Notes under the pieces: generated by a model | What the model was told of the DNA's origin: nothing | What the model saw: only the letters and a program-made list of their open reading frames with translations | Databases searched by the model: none | IMG/VR virus record: IMGVR_UViG_3300033232_000030 | Coordinates: 1 to 38,112 of that record | Reading direction: 5' to 3' (one strand) | Length of the DNA: 38,112 nucleotides | From: a virus | Lineage: Duplodnaviria; Caudoviricetes | Program-made: the position numbers and the translations under genes | Shown: piece by piece, positions 7,137 to 26,576 of the stretch | How positions within the stretch are numbered: position 1 is the first letter of the stretch | Layout of the letters: every line of letters begins with the position of its first letter

Positions 7137-7157
7137 GATGTTTTACTCCTGTTGAAA

Positions 7158-10880: not shown

Positions 10881-12349
10881 CTTGATACGCCTTTGGCGTA
10901 AGCAATGGCTCTGCTTTTGACCCAGCCAACAACTTCTGGCGATGGGTGCTTGGCAGCTGGCTTGGAGGCCGGAGGATCGGTCTTGAATTTCTTTTTGTAC
11001 AGGTGCCAGCTGTAGCCCGGCTTTTTGTTGTACTCTGACTCGTAACCGATCAGCTGGGCGTAGTAGTCAAGCTGGTCAACTTTTGGTTTGTCGCTGACCT
11101 TGACCTCTTTCATCACCCCGGAAATTGAGACAACGTCGTGGCGCCTGGTGCGGACGTGCCCACAGTGCCCACAGATGTCTGCGTTGCCCCAAAGGTAGCC
11201 GCAAGACGGGCACTTGGATGCTTCTTTTTCTTTTGGCGTTGGCTCGGTGCGTGGTTTTTTGTCTTCGCCAGTGTCAAGCGAAGTCACGCCATCGTTGTAG
11301 AGCTTGTTGAACGATTCCTGAAACCGGAGGTAGTTGCCACTATGGTCTTGCACTACGGCAAACTGCTTGTCTGGATACGGGCGTGCGACGCGCCCCATTT
11401 GCTGGACATGCTCTGAGAAACTTTTCTTCAGCGGCCTGGCCAGAATGACGTGATGAACATCAGGCTGGTCAAAGCCGCGCGACAAGATGGCCACCGAGAT
11501 AATGACCTTGATGTCAGAGTCTGGCTTGGCAAAGTCGGCAAGCACTTCGGCACGGTACTCATCTTCATCATTGGATGAAATCTGCACAGCGTTGATGTCA
11601 GCCTCGATGAACTTGCGCGCCAGCTCTGCACCATGGGCAATGCCGCATGAGAAGCAAATGGTCTTGCGCTGCTCACCCCAGACTTCGTTTGAAATGCGGA
11701 TGTAGTCAGTAACCACGTCGCCGACGATCTTCTGGCCGCGCGCCTCAAGCTCATCCTTTTGCCATTCGCCAGCCACGACCTTGACGCCCGTGGTGTCGAT
11801 CTCATGGGCAACAAAGACACGGTAGGGAACCAGGTAGCCTTTATCGACCAACTCTTTCATGGTGATGACCGAGGTGACCGCAGAAAAATAGTTGCCCAAC
11901 TCAGGATTGAATGGGGTCGCGGTGGCACCTATGACACGCAGGTCTTGGCGGTTGTTGAACAGACGCTTTAGTGATGTCCGAAGGCACGCATGGACTTCAT
12001 CGACAAAGCAGATGTCAAACTGTGGCCAGCTGTCCATGCGCTCAAGGGTTTGTGCCGTGGCCACCTGGACCTGTGCATCTGGGCGAAAACGCCAATGCTT
12101 GGCCATCAGCACGCCATGATCGATACCGGCGGAGTCGAGGTGCTTGGAGAACTGCTCAACGAGCACGCGGCGCTCACAGATAAAGACAATTCTGGAACCC
12201 TTGGCCTGGGCTGCCTTGATCATTTGCAGCATCACGACCGATTTTCCGGCGCCTGTAGAAGCCGACAGAATCTGGCGGCGATGTCCATTGCGAAAGCCCT
12301 GGCGCAGGCTTTCAATGGCATCTTGCTGGTATTGCCTGTCTTCAATCAT
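10868..12349 (-). CDS. Superfamily 2 (DEAH-type) helicase with C-terminal Zn ribbon
   Basis: RQYQ, STGAGKS, DEVH, TATP, GFDQP, QQMGRVAR, CPSCG...CGHCG. Confidence 0.95.
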   Translation of the reverse strand: MIEDRQYQQDAIESLRQGFRNGHRRQILSASTGAGKSVVMLQMIKAAQAKGSRIVFICERRVLVEQFSKHLDSAGIDHGVLMAKHWRFRPDAQVQVATAQTLERMDSWPQFDICFVDEVHACLRTSLKRLFNNRQDLRVIGATATPFNPELGNYFSAVTSVITMKELVDKGYLVPYRVFVAHEIDTTGVKVVAGEWQKDELEARGQKIVGDVVTDYIRISNEVWGEQRKTICFSCGIAHGAELARKFIEADINAVQISSNDEDEYRAEVLADFAKPDSDIKVIISVAILSRGFDQPDVHHVILARPLKKSFSEHVQQMGRVARPYPDKQFAVVQDHSGNYLRFQESFNKLYNDGVTSLDTGEDKKPRTEPTPKEKEASKCPSCGYLWGNADICGHCGHVRTRRHDVVSISGVMKEVKVSDKPKVDQLDYYAQLIGYESEYNKKPGYSWHLYKKKFKTDPPASKPAAKHPSPEVVGWVKSRAIAYAKGVSRWRH

Positions 12350-12993
12350 GCCTGCATCCTCCTGTGATTTGCCTCAAACACGGCTTTTGCAAACCCTGCT
12401 GGCGTGGCGCTGCGGATGCTGGCCCGGTCTGGCCCAGGGGGGCATTTGTGAATGCGGTCATCAGGATCACAAAGCCCTGGAGCCTGAAAGGGTGGCGGCA
12501 TCACGAAACCGCCGCCTGTCCACAGGCATGTCTTCTTGGTGTAGTTGTCACCACTAAACCATCCAGTGAAGTGGTGCGGGCTGAAGTAATGGTCCGGCTT
12601 GCGCCAATAGCTTGAGATGCTGCTAACAGGGTTCTCGATGCCATAAGGCGCTTGCGACCATTCGCAGAACTCAACTGCCGTGGCAAACATTGACACCCCT
12701 TGGGCCAAGCGCCTCAATCCCTTTCCTTTGAACCATCGCGCACCGCTTACGGCAAGGTGGTCACATGGCGGGAAGGCAAACACGAATGCAATGCGGTCGC
12801 GGTCAATCGGGAGCAGCAATGGCACCATCAGGTCAGCGTGCTTCTTGTGAAGTCTTCCAATGATCGTCACGCCATCTGTGTCGTAGGCCACGGGGTGCTG
12901 TATGTCAACGGTCCAGCACTCATAACCCGCATCAAGCCACGGCTCGGCCATAATTCCAGTGATGTCAAACAAAAATACGGCGATGTCCTTCAT
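12346..12993 (-). CDS. Second C5 DNA methyltransferase-like protein (short phage Dcm-like family)
   Basis: FAFPPCDHLAVSGARW, IENPVS, YTKKTCLW; ATGA overlaps at both ends. Confidence 0.75.
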   Translation of the reverse strand: MKDIAVFLFDITGIMAEPWLDAGYECWTVDIQHPVAYDTDGVTIIGRLHKKHADLMVPLLLPIDRDRIAFVFAFPPCDHLAVSGARWFKGKGLRRLAQGVSMFATAVEFCEWSQAPYGIENPVSSISSYWRKPDHYFSPHHFTGWFSGDNYTKKTCLWTGGGFVMPPPFQAPGLCDPDDRIHKCPPGPDRASIRSATPAGFAKAVFEANHRRMQA

Positions 12994-13859
12994 GCTCGCA
13001 ACCTCTTGAGTTTGTTTTGCAGCGATAGGCATTGCCGCTTGGCTTGCGCTGCTTCGTTTTGATATTGATCGCGTGAGCGGGTAACGGCCTCCAGGTTGAT
13101 CTCCAGCGTGCGCACTTGTTGGCGAAGCTCTTTGGTGTGCGCAAGTGCCTGGGCTGCTTCGTCGTCAGTAGGGTGAAGAACAATCGCATCGAGCCGGTCT
13201 TGCAGTGCCTGGTTTTGCTGATGCAGTTCCTGGATGTGGTCTTGCGCCTCATCAAGCGCGGTGTATTTGGGCGTGTCTTGCGCTTTGGTGGCTGGCTCGG
13301 CTGCTGGTTGATTGGCTGGCTGCTCGGCGGCGCGGTTCTGCGCCTTGCCAATGCCACCGGTTTTCATTGTTGACGTGGTGCCGTGCTTGGTGGTGTAGGT
13401 GCGCTCTGTGGGCTTCTCACTCAAATCGGATTTGAGTGAGCGCCGAACTGAGCTGACAAAATTCTGTGACACCGCGCAGGTTTTGGCAATGGCGCCGTCG
13501 CTCCAGGCCGCCCACTCGGCATCGCCCAGCATGGCTAGTACCGACTTGCGCTTGTCGGCGTTGGTTGGGCGCTTGCCGTGTCTGCCATTGGCGCCAACAC
13601 TGTAGAGCTTGGCGTCGCGGACAGTGCCTTTACGCACATCAGAGACGATGGATGTTTTGCCAGCTTGGGTGTGGGCGTGGTAGCGGTGGAAGCCGTCGGC
13701 CAGCCAGCCATCTACCCCGTCGTAAAAGACCACGACCGCAGGGAATTCGTCGCCCGACTTGATGGCCTCGGCGTATTCAGTGACAGTGTTGTTGTCGATC
13801 TGGACGCGTGATTGCGTGTCCCCGTCGATACGGATGCTTGCGATGTCGATGGTCTTCAT
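12990..13859 (-). CDS. ParB/Srx-like N-terminal domain protein with HTH and coiled coil
   Basis: TQSR, FPAVVVF, LADGFHRYHA, AN.RHG, WSDGAIAKTCAVSQNFVSSVR. Confidence 0.85.
   Translation of the reverse strand: MKTIDIASIRIDGDTQSRVQIDNNTVTEYAEAIKSGDEFPAVVVFYDGVDGWLADGFHRYHAHTQAGKTSIVSDVRKGTVRDAKLYSVGANGRHGKRPTNADKRKSVLAMLGDAEWAAWSDGAIAKTCAVSQNFVSSVRRSLKSDLSEKPTERTYTTKHGTTSTMKTGGIGKAQNRAAEQPANQPAAEPATKAQDTPKYTALDEAQDHIQELHQQNQALQDRLDAIVLHPTDDEAAQALAHTKELRQQVRTLEINLEAVTRSRDQYQNEAAQAKRQCLSLQNKLKRLRA
13414..13440. repeat. Palindromic site, copy 1, inside the ParB-like gene
   Basis: ctcactcaaatc-g-gatttgagtgag; reverse complement of 13414-13440 equals 25828-25854 exactly. Confidence 0.9.
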
Positions 13860-13963
13860 TTTTGTAACTGGTGTTGCTTTAAGGCACACTTGTGCTGTAG
13901 GGACATTGAGATACCTTTGCTTTTTTTTTCCTAAACAGGCTATTTGTTTGCTAACGCACTTAC

Positions 13964-14224
13964 TTACACGCTGCTTTTGTGCGAGACTTTGCTTAAGGAG
14001 CGCAGAGCAGCCTTCTCTTTGCGATGGGCCTCGCGCTCTTTAACAAGCGTGGCGTAGCTGACCTTGTTTTTTGAAAGCTTGACGATGATTTCCATCCATT
14101 CTGTAGGCATCAGAATGTGGCCAGACTTGGCATTAGTGATGTTGGATCGATGGATACCAAGTTGCTTTGCAATTGTTGTTGCCATGCCGTAGTTTTCATC
14201 TAACCATGCGCTGAATTTTTTCAT
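13964..14224 (-). CDS. Cro-like HTH regulator
   Basis: Divergent from the CI-like gene; ATTIAKQLGIHRSNITNAK HTH. Confidence 0.7.
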   Translation of the reverse strand: MKKFSAWLDENYGMATTIAKQLGIHRSNITNAKSGHILMPTEWMEIIVKLSKNKVSYATLVKEREAHRKEKAALRSLSKVSHKSSV

Positions 14225-14282
14225 AAATGTTGCTTTAAGCTTGAAACAGTTTAAGTGTACAGCAAACAATTAGGAGTGTGTT

Positions 14283-14954
14283 ATGGATACATCAAAAGAT
14301 ATGGCGGTTTTGCGCCGGGCTAATCTGGAGGCATGGATGCACAAACACCGACTCAGCCAAACCGATGTTGCAAACAGGACAAACCGAAGCCGATCGCAGA
14401 TTTCTCTGTTGTTCAAGCGGTTTTTTGGCGAGAAGCTGGCGCGCGATATGGAACGCGATCTGGGTATGCCAAGCGGCTTTCTGGATGACGACACAACGTC
14501 GCCCAAGGGGGTTGAGGCATGGGCAACACCGGATGATTTGCAGCTTGGTGTTTATGCACTGGTGCCAATGGTGATGCTGGCGCTGTCAGATGGCAACCTG
14601 GTTAAACAGGAACAGGCAGCACCACCGCTGGCGTTCCGGCAGGAATGGCTAAAGAGTAAGAGCGTGACGGCCAAGCACAATTTGTGCGTGCTTGCCATGA
14701 CTGGCGATGCCATGACACCGTATTTGCAAGACAAGGATATGCTGTTGATTGATGTCGGGCAAACGGATGTCAATGACAACCAGATTTATGCGATTTCTTA
14801 TGGTGGAGAACTGCGCATGAAGCGCTTGAGCAGACGCTTTGACGGTGGCCTCAAGATCAGATCAGACAACCCGTCTTACCCGGACGATGACCTGAGCCCG
14901 GAGCAGGCAGGGCACATCGCAATTGTGGGTAAGTTGATTTGGCGTGCTGGCTAA
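14283..14954 (+). CDS. CI-like repressor (HTH plus S24 peptidase-like domain, catalytic Ser replaced by Ala)
   Basis: SQTDVANRTNRSRSQIS HTH; FGEKLARDME; GDAMTP; MKRL; SDNPSY; IVGKLIW; RBS AGGAG. Confidence 0.9.
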   Translation: MDTSKDMAVLRRANLEAWMHKHRLSQTDVANRTNRSRSQISLLFKRFFGEKLARDMERDLGMPSGFLDDDTTSPKGVEAWATPDDLQLGVYALVPMVMLALSDGNLVKQEQAAPPLAFRQEWLKSKSVTAKHNLCVLAMTGDAMTPYLQDKDMLLIDVGQTDVNDNQIYAISYGGELRMKRLSRRFDGGLKIRSDNPSYPDDDLSPEQAGHIAIVGKLIWRAG

Positions 14955-15121
14955 AGCTCTTGATGATGTGCCAGATTGAGCGCCTCAATGAGGACTGGCA
15001 CAAGGTCTGCGGGTAGCGTGATGGAATCATCACCTTGCTGAATGATGACGGTATCGTCTTTTGAGCCGACATGAACAGCTTCAAAACTCGAAAATACTTG
15101 ATTGAATTTGCAGGTTTGCAT
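14951..15121 (-). CDS. 56-aa hypothetical protein, not in the ORF track
   Basis: MQTCKFNQVFSSFEAVHVGSKDDTVIIQQGDDSITLPADLVPVLIEALNLAHHQEL; AGGA upstream; stop overlaps the CI stop. Confidence 0.5.
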   Translation of the reverse strand: MQTCKFNQVFSSFEAVHVGSKDDTVIIQQGDDSITLPADLVPVLIEALNLAHHQEL

Positions 15122-15177
15122 AATGATTCCTGAACAGGCTTGGGGTGACGTGATAGCTTTGCGATACTCTTTTGTTT

Positions 15178-15366
15178 TTATTGCGGCTGATTTTGTGGTA
15201 ACTTGTTTGCCGTGTCAATGCGCAAAATAAGGCTGGCCAGTTTATTGATTGGCTTTGAGCCGCCTGCTTTTTCTTGACGGCAATACGACCTGAGTGAAAT
15301 GCCGAGCTCGCTGGCCATGCGCTCTTGTGTCAAGTGAAGTTGAGTGCGGATTTGGCGCAGGTTCAT
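15178..15366 (-). CDS. XRE-family HTH protein
   Basis: LRQIRTQLHLTQERMASELGISLRSYCRQE. Confidence 0.85.
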   Translation of the reverse strand: MNLRQIRTQLHLTQERMASELGISLRSYCRQEKAGGSKPINKLASLILRIDTANKLPQNQPQ

Positions 15367-15734
15367 GATGGCGCTCCTGGCAGGTCCATCCAGTGGGTGG
15401 TGCTACTCAATATCCAGCCCTCGGAGCCGTTGTCTTTCCAGCGCGGCAGAGAGTCTTTGTCGATCTGTTCCAGGTAGGCAAGGCTGTAGTCGCAGCCATC
15501 CGACACAAGTACGACGCGAGAGTTGGGCCAGCCAAAGTCGCACTGGTCCATCACAGGAACATCTGGGATTGTGTGCCACCCAGGTTGGGCCGCTTGCCAG
15601 CACTCCCACAAGGTTTGGACGTGTGAGCTGTTGTAGTTGCCAGATGGCATGGGTTTGATGTTTGACCGGTAGCCTTGGGTAACTAACCAGGCGTGGAAGG
15701 TGTTGCGCTCTTCATTGTTTGTGTGTGTGCTCAT
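15363..15734 (-). CDS. DUF551-like hypothetical protein
   Basis: C-terminal THWMDLP; WECWQAA. Confidence 0.7.
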   Translation of the reverse strand: MSTHTNNEERNTFHAWLVTQGYRSNIKPMPSGNYNSSHVQTLWECWQAAQPGWHTIPDVPVMDQCDFGWPNSRVVLVSDGCDYSLAYLEQIDKDSLPRWKDNGSEGWILSSTTHWMDLPGAPS

Positions 15735-16639
15735 GATGTGAGTCCTTTCAGGATGCGGGTTTTGACGCTGCGTTCAGCGGCTTTTAAGGTGTTGCGGTGA
15801 ATGGCCAGGACAGGGTCGGTAAAGATAGTGCCGTCTTTTGGCTTTTGGTAACCACCAGCGTGACAGTAAACAATGGGCGCCATGATGTTGTCGAAAACAT
15901 CTTGGTCACGCTGGCGCAGCTCTTCATCATCAAGGTAGCCACCGAGTGGGTCTTTGATGTGCGGGTCGGCACCAGCCTGGTAGAGCACAAGGTTTGGCTT
16001 GAAGGTGTTGATGTCTGCAATGGCTTCGTGCAGCCAGGCCTGGAATTCGAGCGCTTCTTGCTTGGGTCTGTCGCCGTAAAAGTGATTGCCAGAGCTAAGG
16101 TGCAAGATGTTTGATTTCAGGGCCTGGTGCTTGTCAATAATGTTTTGAGTGCCATCACCAAAATGCATGTCGCAATCGAGTATGGCAATTTTGAATGACG
16201 GGTTTTCCTGGATCAGCTTGGCTGCCACAACCATGAGCCCATTGAATGTGCAGTAGCCACCGCCAAAATCGTAGCCAGCATGGTGAAAGCCAGAGGTTGG
16301 CGAGCATACCGGGCGATCAGGGTGATTGATGGCGAAACGTGCTGCCGACAGCAGGCTGCCAATGGTCCACATGCAGGCCTCAGGAACCCTGTCATCACGC
16401 AGCTCGAAGCCGTTGAGGATGGTGCCATCAAAAACACCGTTGACGTAGTCTGTTTTATGCACTAACAGCAGGGCAGCACGGGTAATTGGGGTGACTTTGC
16501 CAAGCCATGAATTGTTGTAGTCGCGGTAGTTGTAGTGCTGGATTAGCGTCATAAAGCGTGCAGGCTTGCCTGCCGATAGGCTGAAACTGTCCAGGTTCGG
16601 GACGTTTATGCGAGCGTCATAAAAAATTGGGATGGCCAT
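15731..16639 (-). CDS. Zn-dependent histone deacetylase family (lysine/acetylpolyamine deacylase) protein
   Basis: SGFHHAG, GGYCTFN, ILDCDMHFGDGT, YQAGADPHIKDPLG, GGY; start MAIPIFY at 16639. Confidence 0.92.
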   Translation of the reverse strand: MAIPIFYDARINVPNLDSFSLSAGKPARFMTLIQHYNYRDYNNSWLGKVTPITRAALLLVHKTDYVNGVFDGTILNGFELRDDRVPEACMWTIGSLLSAARFAINHPDRPVCSPTSGFHHAGYDFGGGYCTFNGLMVVAAKLIQENPSFKIAILDCDMHFGDGTQNIIDKHQALKSNILHLSSGNHFYGDRPKQEALEFQAWLHEAIADINTFKPNLVLYQAGADPHIKDPLGGYLDDEELRQRDQDVFDNIMAPIVYCHAGGYQKPKDGTIFTDPVLAIHRNTLKAAERSVKTRILKGLTS

Positions 16640-16643
16640 GTGC

Positions 16644-16829
16644 TTACGCCTGATTCTTGACATAAAGGTTGAGGCGCTTGATGAGCCCCTCGTGGTATTC
16701 GCTAAGCTTGCCATGGTACTCAGCAGCAGAACGGTGAGCCAGCGCCTGACGCTTGGCTTCTTCAAGCTCACGCTGTGCCAGCCTGGTGGCGTTTGGCTTG
16801 CAGAACGGTTGGATCAATTGTTTGAGCAT
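16644..16829 (-). CDS. Hypothetical protein
   Basis: Helical 61-aa ORF, LAQRELEEAKR...AAEYH; RBS GGAG. Confidence 0.7.
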   Translation of the reverse strand: MLKQLIQPFCKPNATRLAQRELEEAKRQALAHRSAAEYHGKLSEYHEGLIKRLNLYVKNQA

Positions 16830-17050
16830 GTTGTCTCCAGAAGATGGACGTTAATGATGTCGCGCAGCTTGGTGAGTTGCTCGCGCTCCAATAAGCTTGC
16901 GAATAAGGTTCGCTCTTCTTTTGGCTTTTTGCATTTGGCTTGCTGGCTGGTGAAGTGCAACCAGAAGTAGTCAAGTTCATGGTTGAAGCATTCTATTTTT
17001 TGAACGTGCAGGCGCAGCGTGTGGCTACCGTTGTCGATGAGTTTGTTCAT
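16814..17050 (-). CDS. Hypothetical protein
   Basis: ATGA-coupled ORF in the early operon. Confidence 0.6.
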   Translation of the reverse strand: MNKLIDNGSHTLRLHVQKIECFNHELDYFWLHFTSQQAKCKKPKEERTLFASLLEREQLTKLRDIINVHLLETTCSNN

Positions 17051-17313
17051 TGTTCGGCCTTTGCGATGGCTGCTTTGATGATGTTGATGGATTCGTTGAC
17101 ATAGCCTGGCTTGTAGCAATCGTCCATGGCGCAGTCTTCGAGGAACGGCAAGGCCAGGTACAGGGCGTTGAGTAGGTCGGTGTAGGCATTGAGCGCCACG
17201 GCTCCGGCCTTGAGTTCTTCGGGCGTGAATTTGCCTCCGCCAATGGTGGCCCCCTTGCGCTCGATGAAGGCGTTGCGCATGTTGGCGGCCAGTGTGTTGA
17301 TGTCACTCATCAT
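17047..17313 (-). CDS. Hypothetical protein
   Basis: RBS AGGAGG; DLLNAL...AAIAKAE phage motif. Confidence 0.7.
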   Translation of the reverse strand: MMSDINTLAANMRNAFIERKGATIGGGKFTPEELKAGAVALNAYTDLLNALYLALPFLEDCAMDDCYKPGYVNESINIIKAAIAKAEQ

Positions 17314-17506
17314 TTCCTCCTGTTGTGTTTGAGATTGCTTTTAACGCGATGGTCAGGTCGCGCTTTAGGGCGGCATATTCGATCTCTCTTTCGCCGTGGT
17401 ACTCAGATGGCGTTTCTGTCCGCGGGCTGTAATTGGTGCGGGTGACGCAAAAGGTATCGACATGCACTTTGCATGGGATGCCTGCGATTCGGGTGTCGAT
17501 GTTCAT
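17303..17506 (-). CDS. Hypothetical protein
   Basis: IDTRIAGIPC motif; RBS GGAG. Confidence 0.65.
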   Translation of the reverse strand: MNIDTRIAGIPCKVHVDTFCVTRTNYSPRTETPSEYHGEREIEYAALKRDLTIALKAISNTTGGNDE

Positions 17507-17601
17507 AGCGGTCTCCAGTAGTAAAGGTCAAGCGCCAGAATGAAAAAAGCCGCGGTGTAAACAGCGGCTGCGATGAGGTTGAGAATTCGGTGGTAATTCA
17601 T
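17503..17601 (-). CDS. 32-aa membrane peptide, not in the ORF track
   Basis: MNYHRILNLIAAAVYTAAFFILALDLYYWRPL; RBS GAGG; ATGA overlap with the next gene. Confidence 0.65.
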   Translation of the reverse strand: MNYHRILNLIAAAVYTAAFFILALDLYYWRPL

Positions 17602-17610
17602 TTTTTACCC

Positions 17611-18117
17611 TCAGATGAAGACCAGCACTTTGCCGTCTTTGTTAACAAATTTCACGTCGCCGCCATAGCGTGCATCTCTGGCGTATTGCTCAAAGTTGAT
17701 GTAGCCGCGTGCATACTCTGGAATATCAGCAAGCATGCCAGCGGACTCCCAGTATTCTTCAGCCCATTCGGCTTCGCTGTCGAATTTGCCGTAGTAAGCC
17801 TCTTGTGCTTTGTCGATGTCGCCTTCTGGATCGATGCAGCAGAGATAGACTTCCAGCAGCTCTTTGTCATCGTCGTCAAGGCTGACCCATGAGTCCCAGA
17901 CTTCGGGGTCAAGGTGCGATTCGCTGATGAAGCGCTCGGGGATGCCTTCGTGGTCTTGGTACATGAATTCGTGTTCACCTTGACCATGCAACTCTTGGCA
18001 GGCTTCCTCGAATTCTTTAATGTCATCGTATTCTTCGAGGTTGAGCCAGGCGCCATCAATGGCGCCAGCGTTGTATTTGCCGTAGGTGCCGACGTAGATT
18101 CGTGGGGTGGTGCTCAT
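17611..18117 (-). CDS. ardA: Antirestriction protein ArdA (DNA mimic)
   Basis: IYVGTYGKYNAG...GAWLNL, FMYQDHE, YINFEQYARD; highly acidic. Confidence 0.92.
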   Translation of the reverse strand: MSTTPRIYVGTYGKYNAGAIDGAWLNLEEYDDIKEFEEACQELHGQGEHEFMYQDHEGIPERFISESHLDPEVWDSWVSLDDDDKELLEVYLCCIDPEGDIDKAQEAYYGKFDSEAEWAEEYWESAGMLADIPEYARGYINFEQYARDARYGGDVKFVNKDGKVLVFI

Positions 18118-18129
18118 GATGTGTGCTCC

Positions 18130-18516
18130 TTAGTAGTGTGGGGTGCTTAGCAGGGCGACGTGCAGCCTGAATGCGAATGCTTTGCGCTTGGCCAATGTGC
18201 TGTGGTTGTCTGGCGTGGCTAGCCATCCGCTCACGGCTTGCAGGTTTTCGCGGCAGCGGCGGTGGTCGGCCTTGAGGCGGTTAACTTCGTCCTGCAAAGC
18301 ATTGATCATGGTGTCTGCATCCAGACCCATGCCCTCGGTTTTGCCTTCTTCATAGGCCTCTGCGCGGGCTGCTTCGATCTCCTGCTCGTGCCGGTCATCG
18401 TCATCTTTTTTGTCTTCCAAGTCGGCAGCAAATGCCGCCAGGTGCGCCTTGCCGTACAGGTAGGCATACCGTTCAATTTCAGCGTTTGTAAGATTGGCGT
18501 TCCAGATTGTTCCCAT
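18130..18516 (-). CDS. Hypothetical coiled-coil protein
   Basis: RBS GGAG; operon orientation. Confidence 0.7.
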   Translation of the reverse strand: MGTIWNANLTNAEIERYAYLYGKAHLAAFAADLEDKKDDDDRHEQEIEAARAEAYEEGKTEGMGLDADTMINALQDEVNRLKADHRRCRENLQAVSGWLATPDNHSTLAKRKAFAFRLHVALLSTPHY

Positions 18517-18540
18517 GGTGTTCTCCAGGTTTCAGGCAAT

Positions 18541-18562
18541 AAAAAACCCGCCGTAGCGGGTT
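18541..18562 (-). terminator. Rho-independent terminator
   Basis: Minus strand aacccgc-tacg-gcgggtt followed by a T-run. Confidence 0.7.
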
Positions 18563-18577
18563 GTGGTTTGAGTGAGG

Positions 18578-18889
18578 TTACTTAAGGTCTGGATACCCCA
18601 GATCATCAAGGATTGCTTGCTGATCTTCCCCCTCCAAAATTTTAATCAGACAGCGGCCATTTTTGGCCACCCTGATTACCTCGCCAACGCCGTGACCATG
18701 GGTCGAAACGTCGTTGTAGCTGCCACACCAGCCATGGAGCCTGGGCATGTGGCTCTGATTTGTGTAGGGTGGCGTGTCTCTTAGCTCCCACCGTTCCCAC
18801 CCCCCGTTGTAGGGGTTGGCCTTTTCGATCAGAAAGCCAACATCCCCAACGCTGAGTGAGTCGTCAGGGCCAATCCATTGCGTAGTCAT
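18578..18889 (-). CDS. Hypothetical protein
   Basis: ORF in operon orientation with RLHGWCGSYND motif; start uncertain. Confidence 0.6.
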   Translation of the reverse strand: MTTQWIGPDDSLSVGDVGFLIEKANPYNGGWERWELRDTPPYTNQSHMPRLHGWCGSYNDVSTHGHGVGEVIRVAKNGRCLIKILEGEDQQAILDDLGYPDLK

Positions 18890-18993
18890 GTCAAATCCAA
18901 TCAAGTAAACACCGGTAAGCGACCGGGGCGCAGATGCAATATAGCATCACTGATCTAGCCCCTGTCACAGGCTAGAGCGCTGATGTCATGTTT

Positions 18994-19512
18994 TTAGCAG
19001 GCTAATTCCGTGTTAACCAAAGTGGCCCTGGCGAGCTGTTTGGCGTTCATGCGGTAGCGGCAGCCACCACTGCTGTGTACGATCCAGCCCTTGCGAGGAC
19101 CGGCCGGGCTGATCAGTGTGTAGGTGTCTTTACCGTAAGATATGACCTGGCCAGCAAAGGCTTTGTTCTTTTTGTTGCTCTGATGCGCCCTTACTTTAAG
19201 GCGCCAGTCACCGGCATAACCAGTGGTTGGCGCAGGGGCAGCGTCCAGGTAGGACAGCGGACAGTCGTAGCAGTATGGGCCGCAGGTTTCGTCCATGCTT
19301 TTGTAGCCCCAGCCCATGTTCTTCCCGCCGCCTTGCAGCAGGTCCAGGCCGATCCAGGTGACGCCGTTGGTCTCGGCCAGATACCAGTGATGGTTGCCGA
19401 CTGTGCAAGCCTTGAGTAGCTTGGTTTGCGGGCCGAAGCGGCTCGGACTGCGAAGTTCTGCAACGCAGGCTGCTTTGTTGTGCGACGTATCGTAAGCGAA
19501 TGACCAACCCAT
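18994..19512 (-). CDS. DUF6927-like hypothetical protein
   Basis: MGW start; WGYKSMDETCGPYCYDCPLSYLD; strong RBS AAGGAG. Confidence 0.75.
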   Translation of the reverse strand: MGWSFAYDTSHNKAACVAELRSPSRFGPQTKLLKACTVGNHHWYLAETNGVTWIGLDLLQGGGKNMGWGYKSMDETCGPYCYDCPLSYLDAAPAPTTGYAGDWRLKVRAHQSNKKNKAFAGQVISYGKDTYTLISPAGPRKGWIVHSSGGCRYRMNAKQLARATLVNTELAC

Positions 19513-19581
19513 GATGATTCTCCTTTAAAAATGAAACCGTCAGATGGCTTCCACGGAAACAAAAAACCCTGTTCGCTGATG

Positions 19582-19767
19582 TCATGTTTTAAGAGTCGTT
19601 TCATAAACCAGGCTCAAACCATATTTGGTTCCTGATTTAGCTGTGAAGCGTTCGTAACGCTCTTCAAAAGAACGTAATCCTTCATTCCAGGAATGCAGTG
19701 GCTGACCATTTGGCATTTGGCCAATGATCTTTAGATTTTCTGGTGGTGGAGTATGTTTTTCATGCAT
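19582..19767 (-). CDS. Hypothetical protein
   Basis: TGATG coupling with the upstream gene. Confidence 0.5.
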   Translation of the reverse strand: MHEKHTPPPENLKIIGQMPNGQPLHSWNEGLRSFEERYERFTAKSGTKYGLSLVYETTLKT

Positions 19768-19973
19768 CACAGCACCGCCTTTTCTGCCAGCTCATCGCTG
19801 ATGTCGCCGTTGCGTAGGCAGTAGTCAATAAAGTCGCACCAGGCAACCCGAATATCAACTGGCTGGCTGTTTTGACGCTTGCCGCGTGTGCCCGCTTGAC
19901 GGGCTTGCAAATCAAATTCAGGGTGGTTTTCCCAGAATGCATCGCGCAACTGTTTTTGTGTGGTGTAGTTCAT
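19767..19973 (-). CDS. Hypothetical protein
   Basis: RBS AAGGAG; TTQKQLRDAFW...AWCDFIDYCLRNGDIS. Confidence 0.7.
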   Translation of the reverse strand: MNYTTQKQLRDAFWENHPEFDLQARQAGTRGKRQNSQPVDIRVAWCDFIDYCLRNGDISDELAEKAVL

Positions 19974-20236
19974 GGTGACTCCTTGTAAGTAATCCGTTTT
20001 GTGATGGTCCAACGATCAAGCACTGGTGCGCCGTATTCGTTTTCATCAATGGCGACGTAGGCAACGCCCTTGCGGACAATGCCGAAGCGCACGCCGTCAA
20101 GAACATCAATCTCGTGAATGAGATCATGGCTGATAGCCCAGGCATTGTTCGTTGGTTTGAACGTGAAATAGCGGCGGGTTTCAGGAACATAGAACTCGCC
20201 ACTGTCTCCAGAAAATTGTTTGTCGTAGCGTATCAT
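19970..20236 (-). CDS. Hypothetical protein, first gene of the early operon
   Basis: RBS AGGAG; ATGA overlap with the next gene. Confidence 0.7.
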   Translation of the reverse strand: MIRYDKQFSGDSGEFYVPETRRYFTFKPTNNAWAISHDLIHEIDVLDGVRFGIVRKGVAYVAIDENEYGAPVLDRWTITKRITYKESP

Positions 20237-20251
20237 TTCTGCTCCTAGTTT

Positions 20252-20580
20252 GAAAAAACAAAAGCCACCTGGTTGGCAAGTGGCTTGTGTTTTGCCCCTG
20301 TTGCCAAGGGCTTACGCATCACGTTTTGCTATCCAGACCCCCGGATATGTGATGCTGTGGACGTCTCCCCGTTTCCGGGCTTCCACATGATGTCCGTCTC
20401 TTCCGGCCGACGTAGCCGCTTTCCACACCGTCGCTTTGAGCCCGGTATTGCTACCGTAGAGCGCTTCCTGTCTGATATGAATCAGGAGGATGCAAGGGCG
20501 TCCACTCATTTGTATTCCGCCGTGGAGGGCGGTGCGACCGTTTTTGCTGGTCTGGCGATCCGGGCGATGCCGTTCGATGG
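20252..20580 (-). ncRNA. Candidate large structured non-coding RNA or leader
   Basis: Lies between a promoter and a terminator; about nine helices, several capped by GNRA loops (GCAA, GAAA). Confidence 0.6.
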
Positions 20581-20585
20581 GGTCT

Positions 20586-20614
20586 ATTGTTTTCCAAAAA
20601 GCAAACAATGTCAA
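20586..20614 (-). promoter_or_regulatory. Leftward promoter of the early operon / ncRNA
   Basis: TTGACA(20614-20609)-17-AACAAT; spacer contains TGTTTGCTT as in the other leftward promoters. Confidence 0.6.
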
Positions 20615-20846
20615 GTTAGCATGTCAAAGTGGCTGATTTGCATGTTGCTTTTTTGTTGATCCCCCAATGAAAACCATCGTTTTCAAATAGTTGAGTTTGT
20701 CGAAGGGTTATTTGGCGATTTGCTTTGCGCATGACATGTGCGCCTGGCTGCCAGTGCCAGATGTGTGTATGGGTGGGCGTCGCGCGGTTTATTCCAGTCG
20801 CGCGAGGCGTTTTGCGTGTTGTGCCAGTTGCCAGTCAAGGATGCCG

Positions 20847-21674
20847 TCAAGCCTGGCAAGCTGGCGCTTGTTGAGGTGCGCTGGATGTTCGCCAATCAGT
20901 CATGTCCCAGTTGCCCTTGCCCCCATTGCAGTCGCCACAAAGAATTTGGAGGTTGTCGATATTCAGCGCCAGGTCCGGAAATATCTTGCGCGGCTTGATG
21001 TGGTCAACGTGAATGACAGCACCAGTCTTGGCTGAGGCGCCACAGCACTGACAGACAGGGCCGTATTTTTTCAGTGCCATCATGCGGGTGGCTTTCCATT
21101 CGAATGTGCTCAAAAAGTCGTCCGAAGCCGGGTTGACTTTAGAGTGATTGACAATAAATGATTTGACGGATTGCTCTGTTGGCTGACGCGCGACCAATCT
21201 GCTTAATGGTTCATGGTGCGACTGGGCCTTGCTTGGTTGAGCTTTCACACGAGGAATCCAGTTCAACTGACACCACTCGCGCAGCTTTTTCTTGTTTTCG
21301 CGCATGAATACCTTCACGCTGCCGGAATATGTTGAGCCAAGTACTTCGACAACACGAGGAGCAACAGCGCCAAACAAACCAATACCACCGAGACGACTGC
21401 CATTAATTCCAGAGCACCTAAGGATGTCGTAGGCGAGTGTTGTGAGCTCTTTTCCCTCGACCTTCTTCCGTAATTTTTTATTCGCATTCTTTGGATGGCT
21501 GATTGCAGGCGGTCTATTTGCCGTAGCCTTTTGCGCTACAGCTTTAATGGCAGAGGCCGTTTTGCGCTCGGATTTCAGCTTTTTCTCAATCAAAGAAAGG
21601 AATGCGTGCCTTTTCTGCTTTGATGCTGCTTTCCATTCTTCAGTCTCTTTTAACTCCTCTATCTTCATTTTCAT
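20847..21674 (-). CDS. HNH endonuclease with basic N-terminal extension
   Basis: CQCCG...IHVDHIKP...NLQILCGDCNGGK. Confidence 0.85.
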   Translation of the reverse strand: MKMKIEELKETEEWKAASKQKRHAFLSLIEKKLKSERKTASAIKAVAQKATANRPPAISHPKNANKKLRKKVEGKELTTLAYDILRCSGINGSRLGGIGLFGAVAPRVVEVLGSTYSGSVKVFMRENKKKLREWCQLNWIPRVKAQPSKAQSHHEPLSRLVARQPTEQSVKSFIVNHSKVNPASDDFLSTFEWKATRMMALKKYGPVCQCCGASAKTGAVIHVDHIKPRKIFPDLALNIDNLQILCGDCNGGKGNWDMTDWRTSSAPQQAPACQA

Positions 21675-21895
21675 CTTCAACTTAGTTCCTTGGTATTCAG
21701 GTATCACCCCGAAAGAAAACAGAAAACCAAACCACAAACCCCCCCTACCCCCCAAGCCGATCTCAGGGTGGCACCCGGTTAATTCCGGAAAGCCCAAAGC
21801 AAAGAAAAAGAAAGTGTCAATGGACGTGTGATCCGCTCACACTTTCTCTTTCGTGCTGACCTATCTCTGGGGTTGTAGCCCCACAAAATCCTTTC

Positions 21896-22036
21896 AAAAA
21901 AAAGCCATTAAGTCCTGGTCTTCCGCCTGCCAGCGTGACCCCGAAGGGTTTGGAAGACCAAGGCTTAATGGCTTTGGTTTTGTCACGCTGGCGGCTTGAC
22001 GAAAAGAATTCTACAACAAAGTTTTCACGAAAGCAA
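21896..22036 (-). promoter_or_regulatory. Promoter plus attenuator-like / C4-like structured leader
   Basis: TTGCTT-17-TAGAAT (22036-22008); long stem 21901-21924/21952-21975 followed by a T-run; loop segment 21929-21939 complementary to 21982-21992. Confidence 0.55.
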
Positions 22037-22069
22037 CATGACAGTATGTTGCAAGGTAAAATATGCCTC

Positions 22070-22429
22070 ATGACAAACGAACTTACTTTGCCGTGGCCAC
22101 CAAAGGGGCTGAGCCCGAATGCGCGACTGCATTGGGCTGCCAAGTCAAAGATCACCAAAGCGTACAAAGAGGTTTGCTGGGCGTTATGCAAGGAATCCGG
22201 CATGGTGGCACCTGATTCGCACAGGATTGCTTTGTGGTTGGATTTCTTTCCGCCCGACCGTAGAGCACGCGATGACGACAATATCATTGCCAGTTTCAAG
22301 GCTGGCCGCGATGGATTGGCGCTTGCGTTGGGGATAGACGATAAGAGATTTGTCTTGCGCCCATTTGTGCAGGATAAGGTGGGCGGAATAATCAAGGTTC
22401 GATTAAGCACTTACCCGGAGAGCGCATGA
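22070..22429 (+). CDS. rusA: RusA-like Holliday junction resolvase
   Basis: LPWPP..LSPN.R.HW; PPDRRARDDDNIIASFKAGRDG; IDD. Confidence 0.85.
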   Translation: MTNELTLPWPPKGLSPNARLHWAAKSKITKAYKEVCWALCKESGMVAPDSHRIALWLDFFPPDRRARDDDNIIASFKAGRDGLALALGIDDKRFVLRPFVQDKVGGIIKVRLSTYPESA

Positions 22430-22692
22430 CCCACAGCCATTACTTCAAAGATGTCGCTAATTTGCAACAGATTGATGTTTACCGTGTCCTTGAGCTGTTC
22501 GAGGTAACCTGCCCAGTGGCACAGCACATTGTCAAAAAAGCCCTGGTGGCCGGTAACCGTGGGGCAAAAAGCCAAACCAGAGACATGCAGGACATTGCTG
22601 ACAGCGCACAAAGATGGTTGGAGATGCGCAAAGAGGATGGCACCAGTAACCGATTGGATGAGGCCTATGAAAAAGCCAAGGGAGCCGCTTGA
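22426..22692 (+). CDS. DUF3310-like hypothetical protein
   Basis: HSHY...IDVYRVL...VKKALVAGNRGAK...DMQD. Confidence 0.65.
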   Translation: MTHSHYFKDVANLQQIDVYRVLELFEVTCPVAQHIVKKALVAGNRGAKSQTRDMQDIADSAQRWLEMRKEDGTSNRLDEAYEKAKGAA

Positions 22693-23234
22693 TGGCGAGC
22701 ATGCAGGAGCGCTACTTTGCTGCGCGCAACAGCAGCAATTTGAGGCTTAACCCGGAGCGTGTTGGCGCAACTGATGTGCTGATCGCATCTGGCAGGGTGG
22801 CTGGCCGCAGTGAGCGCAAGGCATTGGCAATTGCCGTATGGGGCACGCTCTCTTCAGACCATATGACGGGGGCAAATGCAATAGCAGAGCGCATGGCCGG
22901 GTGGCTGCGCAAACGCTCATTCGCCAGAGATGGCAAGGCGATTCCAGACACCCACGCCAAAGATACGGCTATGGCCGTGCTTAAGTGGTGGCGAAAACCG
23001 GCATGCCTGACATGTGGTGGCCATGGACATCCATTGATACCGGATTCGCCAGTGATCGATACAAGCCGGGATTGCACTGACTGCAATGGCACTGGTCAGA
23101 TGCCACTGAGAAAGATTGTGCGCACCGAATATATCAATGATGCCTATTGGCTAAGTGCAGAGATTGATATGCTGTGTGCCTTGGTATTTGGCGAGATGGC
23201 GCGTGAGATTAAAGCAGACATGGACACACTATGA
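22689..23234 (+). CDS. Putative late antiterminator (Q-like, CxxCxGxG Zn finger)
   Basis: CLTCGGHG and CTDCNGTG; positioned before the late promoter/terminator and packaging genes. Confidence 0.6.
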   Translation: MMASMQERYFAARNSSNLRLNPERVGATDVLIASGRVAGRSERKALAIAVWGTLSSDHMTGANAIAERMAGWLRKRSFARDGKAIPDTHAKDTAMAVLKWWRKPACLTCGGHGHPLIPDSPVIDTSRDCTDCNGTGQMPLRKIVRTEYINDAYWLSAEIDMLCALVFGEMAREIKADMDTL

Positions 23235-23428
23235 AAAAGTACGGCTGCCACGACAGAGCAGATTACCCGCCAACATACCAAGGCCAAGATGGCTGGATTC
23301 GCTCAGGTGATCAAGCTGTCGCAAAGATGGTAGATATTGAATTCAAATCCAGCCAGGAATGCAACTACACAATGACGGACCTGGGTAGGGTTGATCCAAG
23401 GTGTGAGGGCTGTTCTCGTAAAAAATAA
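23231..23428 (+). CDS. Small Cys-containing hypothetical protein
   Basis: YGCHDR...C.Y...DPRCEGC; ATGA overlap. Confidence 0.65.
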   Translation: MKKYGCHDRADYPPTYQGQDGWIRSGDQAVAKMVDIEFKSSQECNYTMTDLGRVDPRCEGCSRKK

Positions 23429-23440
23429 TTGTCAACACTA

Positions 23441-23468
23441 TTGCAAATATCTTGTAATCTGTTACATT
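23441..23468 (+). promoter_or_regulatory. Candidate late promoter
   Basis: TTGCAA-16-TACATT. Confidence 0.45.
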
Positions 23469-23632
23469 AACGCTCAGCAACAGAGCCGGACAGACAGCAC
23501 CGGCATTAAAACAAGCAGCAACCCTTAAGGCACAGGTGCCTCTAGTTGCGGAAAAACAACAGTTTACAGAACATTAAGCCGATCCATTTGGATCAGGTAA
23601 CCAAGTACTCCTTCAGCTCGCAAGGGCTGTTC

Positions 23633-23663
23633 ACCCCTGTCGAGTTCGCTCCAGGGGTTTTTT
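23633..23663 (+). terminator. Terminator in the late leader (tR'-like)
   Basis: acccctg...caggggt followed by a T-run, upstream of terS. Confidence 0.7.
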
Positions 23664-23696
23664 ATTGTTGCTCCTGGCGTGAGCGAGGGGAATGAG

Positions 23697-24311
23697 ATGG
23701 AAGAGAACAAGCAAAGACGACGTGACACGGATTGGGATGCAGTTCATCGTGATTACAGGACTGGCAAGTTTACCGACCGTGAATTGGCAGCCAAGTACAA
23801 GCTGACGCACACAGCCATTGGTAAGAAGCGCCGTGAAGGTGGTTGGCAAAAGGATTTGTCTGAGATCATCAGGCAAGAAACAGAAGCGGCTGTGCTTAAT
23901 GCGATTGCAGCAAAGGAAACTGCAAGGCAAGAAGTCATCCAGAAAGCCGCAAGAGATAGCGACCTGTCAGAGGAACAAGTTTCCAAAGTAGTTTCCAGGG
24001 ACGCGGATAACAGTTTCCAAGAAGTTTCCAAAGTCGTAAAAACGGCAGCTGCAGTCAATTTACGGGTGATTGAAGGACAGCACACAAGGCTTGAAGCTTT
24101 GCGTGATTTGTTTGTATCTGGGGCGAATGCTGCACGACGTTTACTTGATGACCCTGACTTGAAGTCAGCTCAGGCTGGCGTACAGGCAATGGCTACAGCA
24201 ATAGGCGCTGGAAAGGTGATTACCGAGCTTGAGAACAAGGTTCATAAGCTTGATAAAGAAGAAACCGGAGATTCGTCATTTGAGGCAGCGCTAAGGGCTT
24301 TGCATGGATGA
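23697..24311 (+). CDS. Terminase small subunit
   Basis: DWDAVHRDYRTG...RELAAKY...AIGKKRREGGW HTH; directly before terL. Confidence 0.8.
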   Translation: MEENKQRRRDTDWDAVHRDYRTGKFTDRELAAKYKLTHTAIGKKRREGGWQKDLSEIIRQETEAAVLNAIAAKETARQEVIQKAARDSDLSEEQVSKVVSRDADNSFQEVSKVVKTAAAVNLRVIEGQHTRLEALRDLFVSGANAARRLLDDPDLKSAQAGVQAMATAIGAGKVITELENKVHKLDKEETGDSSFEAALRALHG

Positions 24312-25824
24312 GCAACTCCAAAGAAACCTGAGGCAAATCGTTGATAGCCTTGAGGTGTTTGGGGCGCATTGTCTGAAGATTGCCGATAAGTCTGGCAAGA
24401 CGGTGCCATTTGTGTTTAACAGGGCTCAAAAGTACCTGCATGAAAAGCTTGAAGCGCAGCTAAAGGCAACCGGAAAGGTCAGGGCGCTGGTACTCAAAGG
24501 CAGACAGCAGGGTGTCTCGACATACGTTGCGGCCAGGTTCTATCACAAAACGACCACGGCATTTGGGCGAAAGACGCTGATTGTTGCGCACCAGCAAAAG
24601 AGCACCAGTGGCCTGTTTGACATGGTCAAGATGTACCACAAGTACAACCCGATGGGTGTCTCGACCGAGAAGTCAAACGCGATTGAACTGGTGTTCGATA
24701 AGCTCGAAGGCAGGTATTCACTGGCAACAGCAGGTACCGAGGACGTTGCCCGAGGGATGACGGCACAGCTTGCGCATTTGAGCGAATTTGGCTTTTGGAC
24801 AAACGGTCAGAAACATATGGCTGGTTTGGGCAACGTGGTGCCTGATGTGGATGGCTCAGAGGTAATCATTGAGAGCACCGCCAATGGCATCGGCAATGCG
24901 TTTCATTCGCTCTGGCAGGAGGCTGAGGCGGGGCGCGGTGAGTACATCACGGTCTTTTTGCCTTGGTACTGGTCTGATGAGTATCGATCCGCCGTGCAAG
25001 ATGGGTTCAAGCGCACAGAGGAAGAGGCGTTACTGGCTGATACCTATGGCCTTGATGATGCACAGTTGCAGTGGCGCCGAAACAAGATCAGTTCATATGG
25101 TGATGGCTATGAGTGGTTGTTTTTTCAAGAATTTCCGAACTGCGCCTCAGAGGCGTTTCAGACAAGCTCAAGAAATTCGCTGATTAGCCCCAACTATGTG
25201 ATGGCGGCAGTCAACAGCAAATCATCAGACATGAATGCGCCGTTGATTATTGGCTGCGATCCGGCTGGTGATGGCACAGAGGATGCTGACCGCACGGCGA
25301 TTTGTTTTCGCCGGGGCAGGACAGTGTTTCGTGTGGAGTACCACCAGGGCATGGACACGATGCAGATTGCTGGCCTGCTGAGTCAGTACCACACAGAGCA
25401 TCAGCCCGATGGTTTGATCATCGACAAGGGTGGTTTGGGCGCTGGCGTGTATGACAGGCTAAATGAGCTCAATGTGCCTGTAATTGGCATCAATAGCGCA
25501 CAAAGAGCAACAGATTCAGAGCGGTATGAAAACATTCGCGCTGAGATGTGGTGGAAGATGAAAGAGTGGTTTGAAGATCAGCCCTGCCGTATTCCAAACA
25601 ATTCCGCGCTGATTAGTGATCTGACAGCGCCACAGCCAACGGTTAGCTCAAACGGGCGCAAGCTGTTGGAGAAAAAGGAAAAGATGAAGGCCAGGCAGGT
25701 TCGCTCACCAGATGGCGCGGACAGTATGGCACTCACATTTGCGATGCCGGTGAGTCATAGAGACGGTACGCATTTCGCCAGGCCGGTGAAGACCAAGAAA
25801 GCGGCAACCAGTGCCGGTTATTGA
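24304..25824 (+). CDS. Terminase large subunit
   Basis: FNRAQ, LKGRQQGVST (Walker A), HLSE, ESTANG, GCDPA, SPDGADS. Confidence 0.95.
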   Translation: MDEQLQRNLRQIVDSLEVFGAHCLKIADKSGKTVPFVFNRAQKYLHEKLEAQLKATGKVRALVLKGRQQGVSTYVAARFYHKTTTAFGRKTLIVAHQQKSTSGLFDMVKMYHKYNPMGVSTEKSNAIELVFDKLEGRYSLATAGTEDVARGMTAQLAHLSEFGFWTNGQKHMAGLGNVVPDVDGSEVIIESTANGIGNAFHSLWQEAEAGRGEYITVFLPWYWSDEYRSAVQDGFKRTEEEALLADTYGLDDAQLQWRRNKISSYGDGYEWLFFQEFPNCASEAFQTSSRNSLISPNYVMAAVNSKSSDMNAPLIIGCDPAGDGTEDADRTAICFRRGRTVFRVEYHQGMDTMQIAGLLSQYHTEHQPDGLIIDKGGLGAGVYDRLNELNVPVIGINSAQRATDSERYENIRAEMWWKMKEWFEDQPCRIPNNSALISDLTAPQPTVSSNGRKLLEKKEKMKARQVRSPDGADSMALTFAMPVSHRDGTHFARPVKTKKAATSAGY

Positions 25825-25825
25825 A

Positions 25826-25854
25826 TTCTCACTCAAATCCGATTTGAGTGAGAA
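25826..25854. repeat. Palindromic site, copy 2 (14-bp arms), just after the terL stop
   Basis: ttctcactcaaatc-c-gatttgagtgagaa. Confidence 0.9.
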
Positions 25855-25880
25855 CTGAAATCAACGTAAGAAAGAGCACC

Positions 25881-26576
25881 ATGGACAAAGAACGCAGCGC
25901 ATTCGGGCAAGCGTGGGAACGTTTGTTGGCAGGCAACATTGATGATGAAAATAGCGAAGCCTATGCACGTTACCGTGACGCAGATGGCAACATTCAGGAA
26001 AAGCGCAATTCGGACGCCGAGATTGCCGAGATGCGCAAGCCTGCTGCGAAAGAGGCGCCCAAGGTTTCCGTGGTCAAGATGGAAATGACAGAAACACCTG
26101 ACCCGATGGCCGATGCCCTGGCAGAAGAGGCCAAAGGCAAAACAAGCTGGGAAGCCCAAAATGCAGAAGATTTGAAAGTGTTCAGCGAGGCTTTCAACGC
26201 ACCAGAGGCACCAGAGGCAGCAAAGCCTGAAACTTTCGCCCAAGCTTGGAAAAAAGCGCGCGCTGCTGGCTTGAAGACATTTGATTGGGCCGGTAAGCCT
26301 GGCACCAAGTTCAGCACAGAAAACAAGGAAGAAAAGGCTGCGCGTGAGGCACTTGCAGCAAGCAAGACCACTGCAAGCAAACCAACGCCACAGCAAATTG
26401 AAGCCAAGGTAAAAACAAAAGGTGCTTCTAGCAACGCAAAAGACAGGCCAAGCGTTTACCATGATAATTTTATTAAGGATGCCATTAACAAGGTCAAAGA
26501 AAAGCTATCCGATGACGTCCAAGTGGGCAAAGCTAAATTCCATGCCAATGGCAGGCCAAACCTGACTGCACGGTAA
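25881..26576 (+). CDS. Hypothetical phage protein
   Basis: Contains ETFAQAWKKARAAGLKTFDWAGK motif; TAATG coupling to portal. Confidence 0.75.
   Translation: MDKERSAFGQAWERLLAGNIDDENSEAYARYRDADGNIQEKRNSDAEIAEMRKPAAKEAPKVSVVKMEMTETPDPMADALAEEAKGKTSWEAQNAEDLKVFSEAFNAPEAPEAAKPETFAQAWKKARAAGLKTFDWAGKPGTKFSTENKEEKAAREALAASKTTASKPTPQQIEAKVKTKGASSNAKDRPSVYHDNFIKDAINKVKEKLSDDVQVGKAKFHANGRPNLTAR

Follow-up and report, generated by a model that had tools for sequence, protein, structure and literature searches.

In the ParB-parS and Noc-NBS systems, a protein with a ParB-N fold and a helix-turn-helix (HTH) binds a palindromic site, and few residues set the bases that are read; at the first residue of the recognition helix, Arg reads G (R173 of ParB) and Gln reads A (Noc) (PMC7383237). 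KorB of plasmid RK2, also of the ParB family, acts from OB sites near to and far from promoters, with long-range action by sliding (PMC11790492), while BisD of ICEclc is a ParB-like clamp of a mobile element with two identical 23-bp odd palindromes, bisS, located within genes (PMC12409273). The prophage protein BstA has a cognate DNA element, aba, that overlaps its own gene, and variant BstA-aba pairs are exclusive (PMC8585504). Orphan phage proteins with the ParB-CTPase fold come without ParA and often adjoin, or are fused to, methyltransferases (PMC12704722). We describe a ParB-like gene on a stretch of 38,112 nt (hereafter the window), positions 1 to 38,112 of IMG/VR record IMGVR_UViG_3300033232_000030 (Caudoviricetes), within which lies a palindrome that is very likely, as judged from its pattern among relatives, the docking site of the protein encoded by that same gene. 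The genome probably extends beyond the window, because one complete relative identified by terL measures 80 kb.

The family represented by this gene differs from ParB-parS and Noc-NBS in the lack of ParA, in the location of the site in its own gene beside the HTH codons, in the number of site sequences (52 different cores among 74 genes, against one conserved site there), and in a coiled-coil C-terminus together with an extra hairpin tied to a longer site. KorB also serves partition and works with KorA; in the present family, specificity differs from phage to phage. The bisS sites lie in inrR and ssb but not in bisD, BisD requires BisC, and activation, demonstrated in that system, would be putative in our family. 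BstA-aba is the nearest case of a cognate element within its own gene, but BstA carries a KilA-N-like domain, the 63-bp aba contains direct repeats, and defence was shown; the present family combines a ParB fold, an HTH and a palindrome, with no KilA-N-like domain. As for the orphan phage proteins, the main text of PMC12704722 describes no DNA sites, and the string 'palindrom' is absent from it. A description of such a ParB system with its site in the gene was not found in the literature searched, most subscription papers lying outside the coverage.

Site 1 (13414..13440) is located within the ParB-like gene (12990..13859, minus strand; 289 aa; phrog_1033, E 1.9e-17) and contains a 25-bp palindrome (13416-13440) with the anchor CTCACT, the core CAAATC and a 1-bp spacer. 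Site 2 (25826..25854), a 29-bp palindrome, lies past the terL stop and ahead of the next gene, and 27 nt of it are identical to site 1. The perfect 25-bp palindrome is present at both 13416-13440 and 25828-25852, and the two sites are the sole perfect palindromes in the window with arms of more than 8 bp. A sequence-only reading of this DNA had pointed out both palindromes, and their coordinates, 13416-13440 and 25826-25854, were borne out by a check of the sequence. As it had stated, site 1 encodes SLKSDLSE directly behind the HTH and site 2 follows the terL stop; SLKSDLSE comprises residues 141-148, the predicted recognition helix residues 132-142, and site 2 begins 2 nt downstream of the terL stop at 25824, with 26 nt from its end to the likely ATG (25881) of the next gene. 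The exact inverted match was likewise reproduced, since the stretches 13414-13440 and 25828-25854 (27 nt each, with 12,387 nt between them) are 100% complementary; the label 'inverted', however, depends solely on the central base and two flanking bases, because relative to their own transcription both copies share the same orientation. A scan for further copies of the 25-bp palindrome, as that reading had advised, found none elsewhere in the window with up to 3 mismatches allowed. Any palindrome match was seen in 0 of 100 shuffled sequences, ruling out a chance origin of the pair, and the exact window site gave 0 matches in viral contigs.

Relatives of the gene were collected as 236 loci including the window and reduced to 160 at 90% identity, 76 being dropped as redundant or too short; a search seeded with a distant family member yielded 3 loci only. 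Palindromes with a score of at least 8 just past the HTH codons were called, and windows in and around the same genes served as controls. A palindrome directly past the HTH was detected in 86 of the 160 non-redundant relatives against 15 of 956 control windows, and the sequence-only reading had proposed to test homologues for such palindromic post-HTH codons. Common to 74 of these 86 was an anchor, mainly CTCACT, CTATCT, GTCACT or CATACT, flanking two 6-bp cores; the 12 palindromes without anchor were left out of the code tables and the 74 were used. The anchored sites occupy all three reading frames (32, 29 and 13), ruling out constraint at the protein level. Of the 70 sites whose spacer is 0-1 nt, 54 have a complementary innermost pair, and G-U accounts for just 4 of 40 mismatches, which argues for selection on double-stranded DNA. 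The alignments show the site to be maintained, over the relatives compared, as a DNA palindrome though its sequence varies.

Two further readings of the window pair, as recombination sites for inversion or as RNA hairpins, can be judged at this point, and we hold both to be extremely improbable. The exact 27-nt inverted match would suit inversion, which the sequence-only reading had raised, but both junctions agree with those of relatives: the gene aligns over its full length, and the gene after terL is of the kind found there in relatives. Site 2 does fold as RNA (z -2.7), but the innermost complementarity and the scarcity of G-U among the mismatches led us to reject a hairpin function.

Tandem sites were detected in 9 of the 160 genes, while the window gene has a single palindrome. 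Two or three different sites are present in the genes of L170 and L172 (43-88 nt past the helix) and of the proteins P0032 and P0087; one site fits the present helix and the remaining sites fit other helices. These genes are possible intermediates of specificity change. At position 8080 of G004, a site resembling the core of another member (3 mismatches) stands upstream of a family gene whose helix differs.

We then compared the cores with the protein sequences, using the mutual information of each core base against all protein columns. The top partner was residue 122 for base 1 (z 20.9), residue 132 for base 2 (z 17.0), residue 133 for base 3 (z 11.5), residue 131 for base 5 and residue 134 for base 6 (z 18.0); base 4 had residues 134, 131 and 133 as top partners. 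Counted over arms, residue 122 pairs R with G (63/66), N with T (30/34) and E with C (10/10), while residue 132 pairs H with G (48/54), E or D with C (20/20) and Q with A (14/20). Each core base is shown by this covariation to follow particular HTH residues, and the co-variation of a self-encoded site with the HTH, proposed in the sequence-only reading, passed every comparative test applied. In the window the HTH (residues 121-142) occupies 13434..13499 on the minus strand, and the specificity codons, 13494-13496 for residue 122 and 13458-13469 for residues 131-134, lie outside site 1 without overlap. At residue 132, which we infer from the HTH register to be the equivalent of ParB R173, the pairings of Arg with G and of Gln with A parallel those of ParB R173 and the Noc Gln.

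In a leave-one-out test with kin above 70% excluded, the accuracy of the code was 0.76, compared with 0.42 for the nearest ParB-N neighbour and 0.45 for the majority base, and 5 of the 6 bases of the window core were predicted. A held-out set of 86 relatives gave 37 in which the predicted site fell within the gene and ranked in the top 3 of its locus, against 80 of 839 with control matrices. At a four-fold synonymous Leu position, G was present in 12 of 14 genes with R122 and in 0 of 17 with another residue. Between pairs with residues 132-134 fixed and residue 122 differing, base 1 changes in 39 of 43 and base 2 in 4 of 43, and a further stratified pair comparison of bases following their own residue gave 97 versus 475 of 545. 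The synonymous-position and stratified-pair tests rule out block linkage as the source of the code. Neither inversion nor an RNA hairpin would account for this residue-to-base code.

The length of the site and its outer anchor are associated with another element of the protein, a beta hairpin (RTYTTKHG in the window; residues 153-165, 13365..13403, minus strand). The long site is present in 70 of 106 members with the hairpin and in 4 of 54 without it. The hairpin class follows the outer anchor: TKHG goes with TCACT (45/51), VERNG with TATCT or CATCT (13/15) and FIHPKTG with ATACT (4/4). This association could be linkage, because the hairpin codons adjoin the anchor.

The protein is a member of the ParB fold superfamily but not of ParABS. 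Its AlphaFold2 (AF2) model (predicted local distance difference test, pLDDT, 84.6) consists of a ParB-N domain, the HTH, the beta hairpin, a loose linker and a long C-terminal helix, and the best solved structures found by Foldseek were Myxococcus xanthus ParB (E 2e-7), followed by Noc, Spo0J and KorB. A direct Pfam ParB_N match was absent at E 0.05, yet PF02195 is precomputed for the window protein; the NCBIfam ParB model gave no match at E 0.1, and 2 of 4 relatives tested with NCBIfam gave weak Noc matches far under the cut-off. An HTH-only profile matched generic HTH proteins only in the PDB. The ParB-N nucleotide-binding fold (residues 1-95; 13575..13859, minus strand) includes the near-invariant residues Q16, R18, D55-G-F-H-R59 and N91: Q16, R18, D55, G56, H58, R59 and N91 are conserved in 157-159 of the 160 relatives, and the GxxR nucleotide motif (G56, H58 and R59 in 158/160) aligns with that of ParB. 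In a two-copy model, a dimer score of 0.53 was obtained via the C-terminal coiled coil (residues 238-288; 12996..13148, minus strand), against 0.00 for the best of 3 controls; of 30 solved pairs 20 attain the mark for this score, as does 1 of 23 single chains. Contact agreement between model runs was at least 69% and partner pLDDT at least 63, and the modelling supports a predicted dimer formed through this coiled coil. The architecture is also related to that of StrR/NovG-type regulators, as seen from an Atlas structure match (template modelling score, TM, 0.54; NovG_helical cluster), and some phage relatives bear a StrR-like label. Regulators of the StrR/NovG type are activators of actinomycete gene clusters, with sites upstream of operons and none known in their own gene. 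Two variants of the family were noted in passing: in L407 (2993-4375) the family protein is fused to a DNA methyltransferase, and in L413 (4222-7762) longer family proteins stand beside an FtsK-like gene, with extra sites adjoining an integrase.

A ParB fold, a GxxR motif, a palindromic site and a predicted dimer would also be expected of a partition system, in which the sites were the parS centromere of a plasmid-like prophage. This is very improbable, since ParA is scarce and the gene is in a lytic-operon position. The sequence-only reading had seen no ParA in the window, and indeed none was present among the 35 scanned open reading frames (ORFs) and none was detected on the contig by two ParA-like queries; across relatives, these queries had a match at a single one of the 160 loci and on a single one of 57 contigs. 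Several relatives, moreover, are integrated proviruses.

We favour binding of the protein to its own site, because no other reading accounts for the position-specific code. With high confidence, though from covariation, the binding would be direct: the HTH would read the 6-bp cores, and the outer anchor would be read by the beta hairpin. Loading of a nucleotide-gated clamp at the site is rather probable, and with such loading a site within the gene or at shifting places would suffice. In the mechanism that we propose, a dimer would load at its own palindrome, the loaded clamp would slide along the DNA of its own phage, and it would regulate in cis at a distance, as KorB and BisD do. To this overall reading, a self-loading clamp acting as a cis-acting long-range regulator by analogy to KorB and BisD, we give about even chances. 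Its function, again at roughly even odds, may be the tuning of the early replication operon headed by the gene, and of late genes where, as in the window, a second copy is present at the terminase/head junction. A regulator clamp is preferred because the sites can lie in coding DNA, remain within the operon or immediately ahead of it, and reappear where terminase and head genes meet. A span of about 100 bp holds both the HTH codons and the site, so that the two would be passed on together as a single specificity cassette. Nothing in the analysis favoured the looping suggested in the sequence-only reading.

Sites outside the gene indicate that a second copy is, on the sequences compared, optional. 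Besides the window, one clear case of a second copy within 10 kb was found among 37 loci, and matching pairs on single contigs were seen in L350/L359, L380/L381, L417/L401, L412/L416, L076, L242 and L285, frequently located at terminase or head genes. On 57 contigs we detected 49 code-matched sites outside the gene (18.5 per Mb versus 1.6 for the control), most of them in short-site members with 6-12 dispersed copies; 11 of the 49 are intergenic (5.6 expected). Such sites were found within 500 bp of the terL end in 4 of 11 genomes including the window (0.89 expected, p 0.007). Members whose gene lacks the site have 17 outside sites, 5 of them just upstream of the gene (1.3 expected), and in L055 the upstream site sits between TTGACA and a -10-like hexamer. 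A first motif scan (47 stretches, grouped by hand into lineages) gave perfect outside sites in 10 lineages, 7 at terS/terL, 2 at head genes and 1 unrelated; a second scan (26 stretches, 5 lineages) gave 2 beside integrase, 2 at capsid genes and 1 between thyX and a helicase gene. Short IMG/VR contigs are probably enriched in terminase and capsid genes, which would inflate these counts.

Among 23 terL relatives, the near-identical L316 and L317 carry, 39-46 nt past the stop, a family-type site whose core is a different one, and the three closest relatives have no family-type site after terL. The L316/L317 site cannot be linked to its own protein, because the family gene was seen on 0 of 17 terL-relative contigs, these being mostly fragments. 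In L359 and L339/L340, older terL sites with other cores adjoin the current ones, which suggests that the terL copy is renewed upon specificity change. Two observations on hairpins and sites elsewhere may be added. A second hairpin with the core GTACCCGGTAC is located right after terL in L318 (stop 6319), L365 (near 1290) and L373 (near 3450), and in two of these cases it directly precedes a family-type site. Short-type sites were also noted within the erf genes of three phages (L158, 15347; L051, 572; L055, 2967).

Several results weigh against a regulator that loads at its own in-gene site. The long in-gene palindrome is absent in 74 of the 160 relatives, many of which also lack a predicted site. 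A tree-based test of the code had 2-4 supported pairs, which puts significance out of reach; the matched pairs went in the same direction (3.9, 3.7 and 3.9 of 4; 1.2 of 2) and the mismatched controls did not. Paired copies in related phages, expected by the sequence-only reading, do exist on single contigs but form a minority, as extra copies of the own site were present in 1 of 24 whole contigs of relatives (G032 only), and none were present on 10 contigs with a completeness rating of 90% or more. Outside sites lie within coding DNA in 38 of 49 cases, a promoter-like neighbour was found for 3 of 49, the background level, and perfect outside sites at terL were 0 of 5 in the second motif scan. 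With respect to the clamp, F57 in the alignment occupies the catalytic Glu position of M. xanthus ParB, because of which nucleotide hydrolysis may differ from that of ParB, and 17 of 28 ParB-fold proteins bound no NTP in the experiments described in PMC12704722.

A strong linkage to helicase and primase genes suits a replication origin equally. Like lambda O, an initiator whose gene holds its origin, the protein would then bind a lytic replication origin inside its own gene and recruit the adjacent helicase and primase. In the window the operon downstream of the ParB-like gene (9927..13032, all minus strand) is composed of a DNA methyltransferase-like gene (12346-13032), an SF2 helicase gene (10868-12349) and a PriCT-2/Toprim primase gene (9927-10880). 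Of 107 loci, 84 have a helicase gene and 71-74 a primase gene no more than 4 kb downstream, the ParB-like gene is the first after cro, and most long-site members have the in-gene copy alone. We nevertheless regard an origin as unlikely, because 6-12 copies are dispersed over the DNA of short-site members, the gene of G025 lacks a copy, extra copies prefer terminase junctions, and A+T content and GC skew are flat at the site in coarse 2-kb bins. Satellite-like elements with their own Rep or primase nonetheless carry sites.

Arrays of different sites were detected in these elements. Five different sites are present in frame in a primase-helicase gene of L349/L387 (4961-5110), two sites (L356, 528-617) and four sites (L366, 1097-1668) upstream of a capsid gene, and two sites in L357 (5960-6024). 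With one search target per array and two in L366, 11 of 13 array sites match a known in-gene core exactly in one or both arms, where a random 6-mer would do so in 1.7% of cases; L366 also holds palindromes of other kinds. The elements carry integrase or Rep, primase, capsid, protease, portal and terminase genes, and by this gene content we take them to resemble phage satellites, a label that rests on short fragments (L356 and L366 are 5-kb fragments). Arrays are present without the family gene in G082 and G083, while L343 and L422 hold scraps of the family gene with its site. Of 17 stretches from a tandem-pattern scan, 5 have tandem different sites (from 3 lineages) and 2 are repeats, while family-type sites are absent from the other 10. 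Apart from these arrays, L343 (3786-10365), a small element, carries two ParA-like genes along with a Rep-O-like gene, capsid genes and the family-gene scrap, and it has long inverted repeats with sites on both sides of terS-terL.

The arrays of 2-5 different, mostly exactly matching cores, their presence in elements without the family gene and the diversity of cores among the genes recall a self tag of the BstA-aba kind, in which cognate pairs likewise have the element overlapping the gene (PMC8585504). The protein would hamper DNA without the site or shield DNA with it, and satellites would accumulate sites either in order to be taken for self or so as to titrate the protein. This too seems unlikely to us: no nuclease or effector domain was seen in the window protein by domain scans or in the AF2 model, the gene sits in an early lytic operon and not in a lysogenic cargo slot, the arrays might equally borrow an activator or initiator, and the satellite label has the basis given above. 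A more speculative reading, less likely than not but hinted at by the second copy near the packaging genes and by the sites in satellite-like elements, is a widespread identity-tag system of phages, in which the palindrome of each phage would be a private lock beside the HTH key codons; the ParB clamp would mark lock-bearing DNA as self, be it for replication, for late expression or for protection. Satellites would gather foreign locks, driving rapid turnover of the code.

Orphan phage ParB proteins are common, and the family described here lets the target be read from the gene itself. It offers dozens of natural HTH-site pairs and a recognition code that lends itself to testing. These pairs show far more variety than ParB and Noc do and could serve as orthogonal labels of the ParB/parS type. 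The sites near terminase genes and the satellite-like arrays hint at conflict between phages and satellites.

Within the window, a cro-like ORF (13964-14269, minus strand), labelled from its position and a weak Pfam match, is followed by a cI-like repressor gene (14283-14954, plus strand), which lies just upstream of the ParB-like gene, past the cro-like ORF. A weak promoter was located immediately upstream of site 1 (2 found in the promoter scan, 0.9 expected), and no promoter was detected near site 2 in promoter scans. The surroundings of site 2 (23679..28831, all plus strand) comprise terS (23679-24311), terL (24304-25824), ending just before the site, a first gene past it without assigned function (25881-26576), and a portal-like gene (26576-28831). 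In the early region, a gene of the histone-deacetylase family (15731-16771, minus strand) matched PF00850 (E 3.6e-30) and had no PHROG match. Intergenic repeats with 85-88% identity, possibly shared promoters or regulator sites, are located at 2000-2039 and 7150-7189, with related ones at 7191-7214 and 22457-22480. At 21896-21980, between divergent gene blocks, a terminator-like inverted repeat of 29 nt encloses a 27-nt loop and has A/T tails, and a gene in the virion region (34110-35176) contains internal 66/75-nt repeats and a terminal 60-nt tandem repeat.

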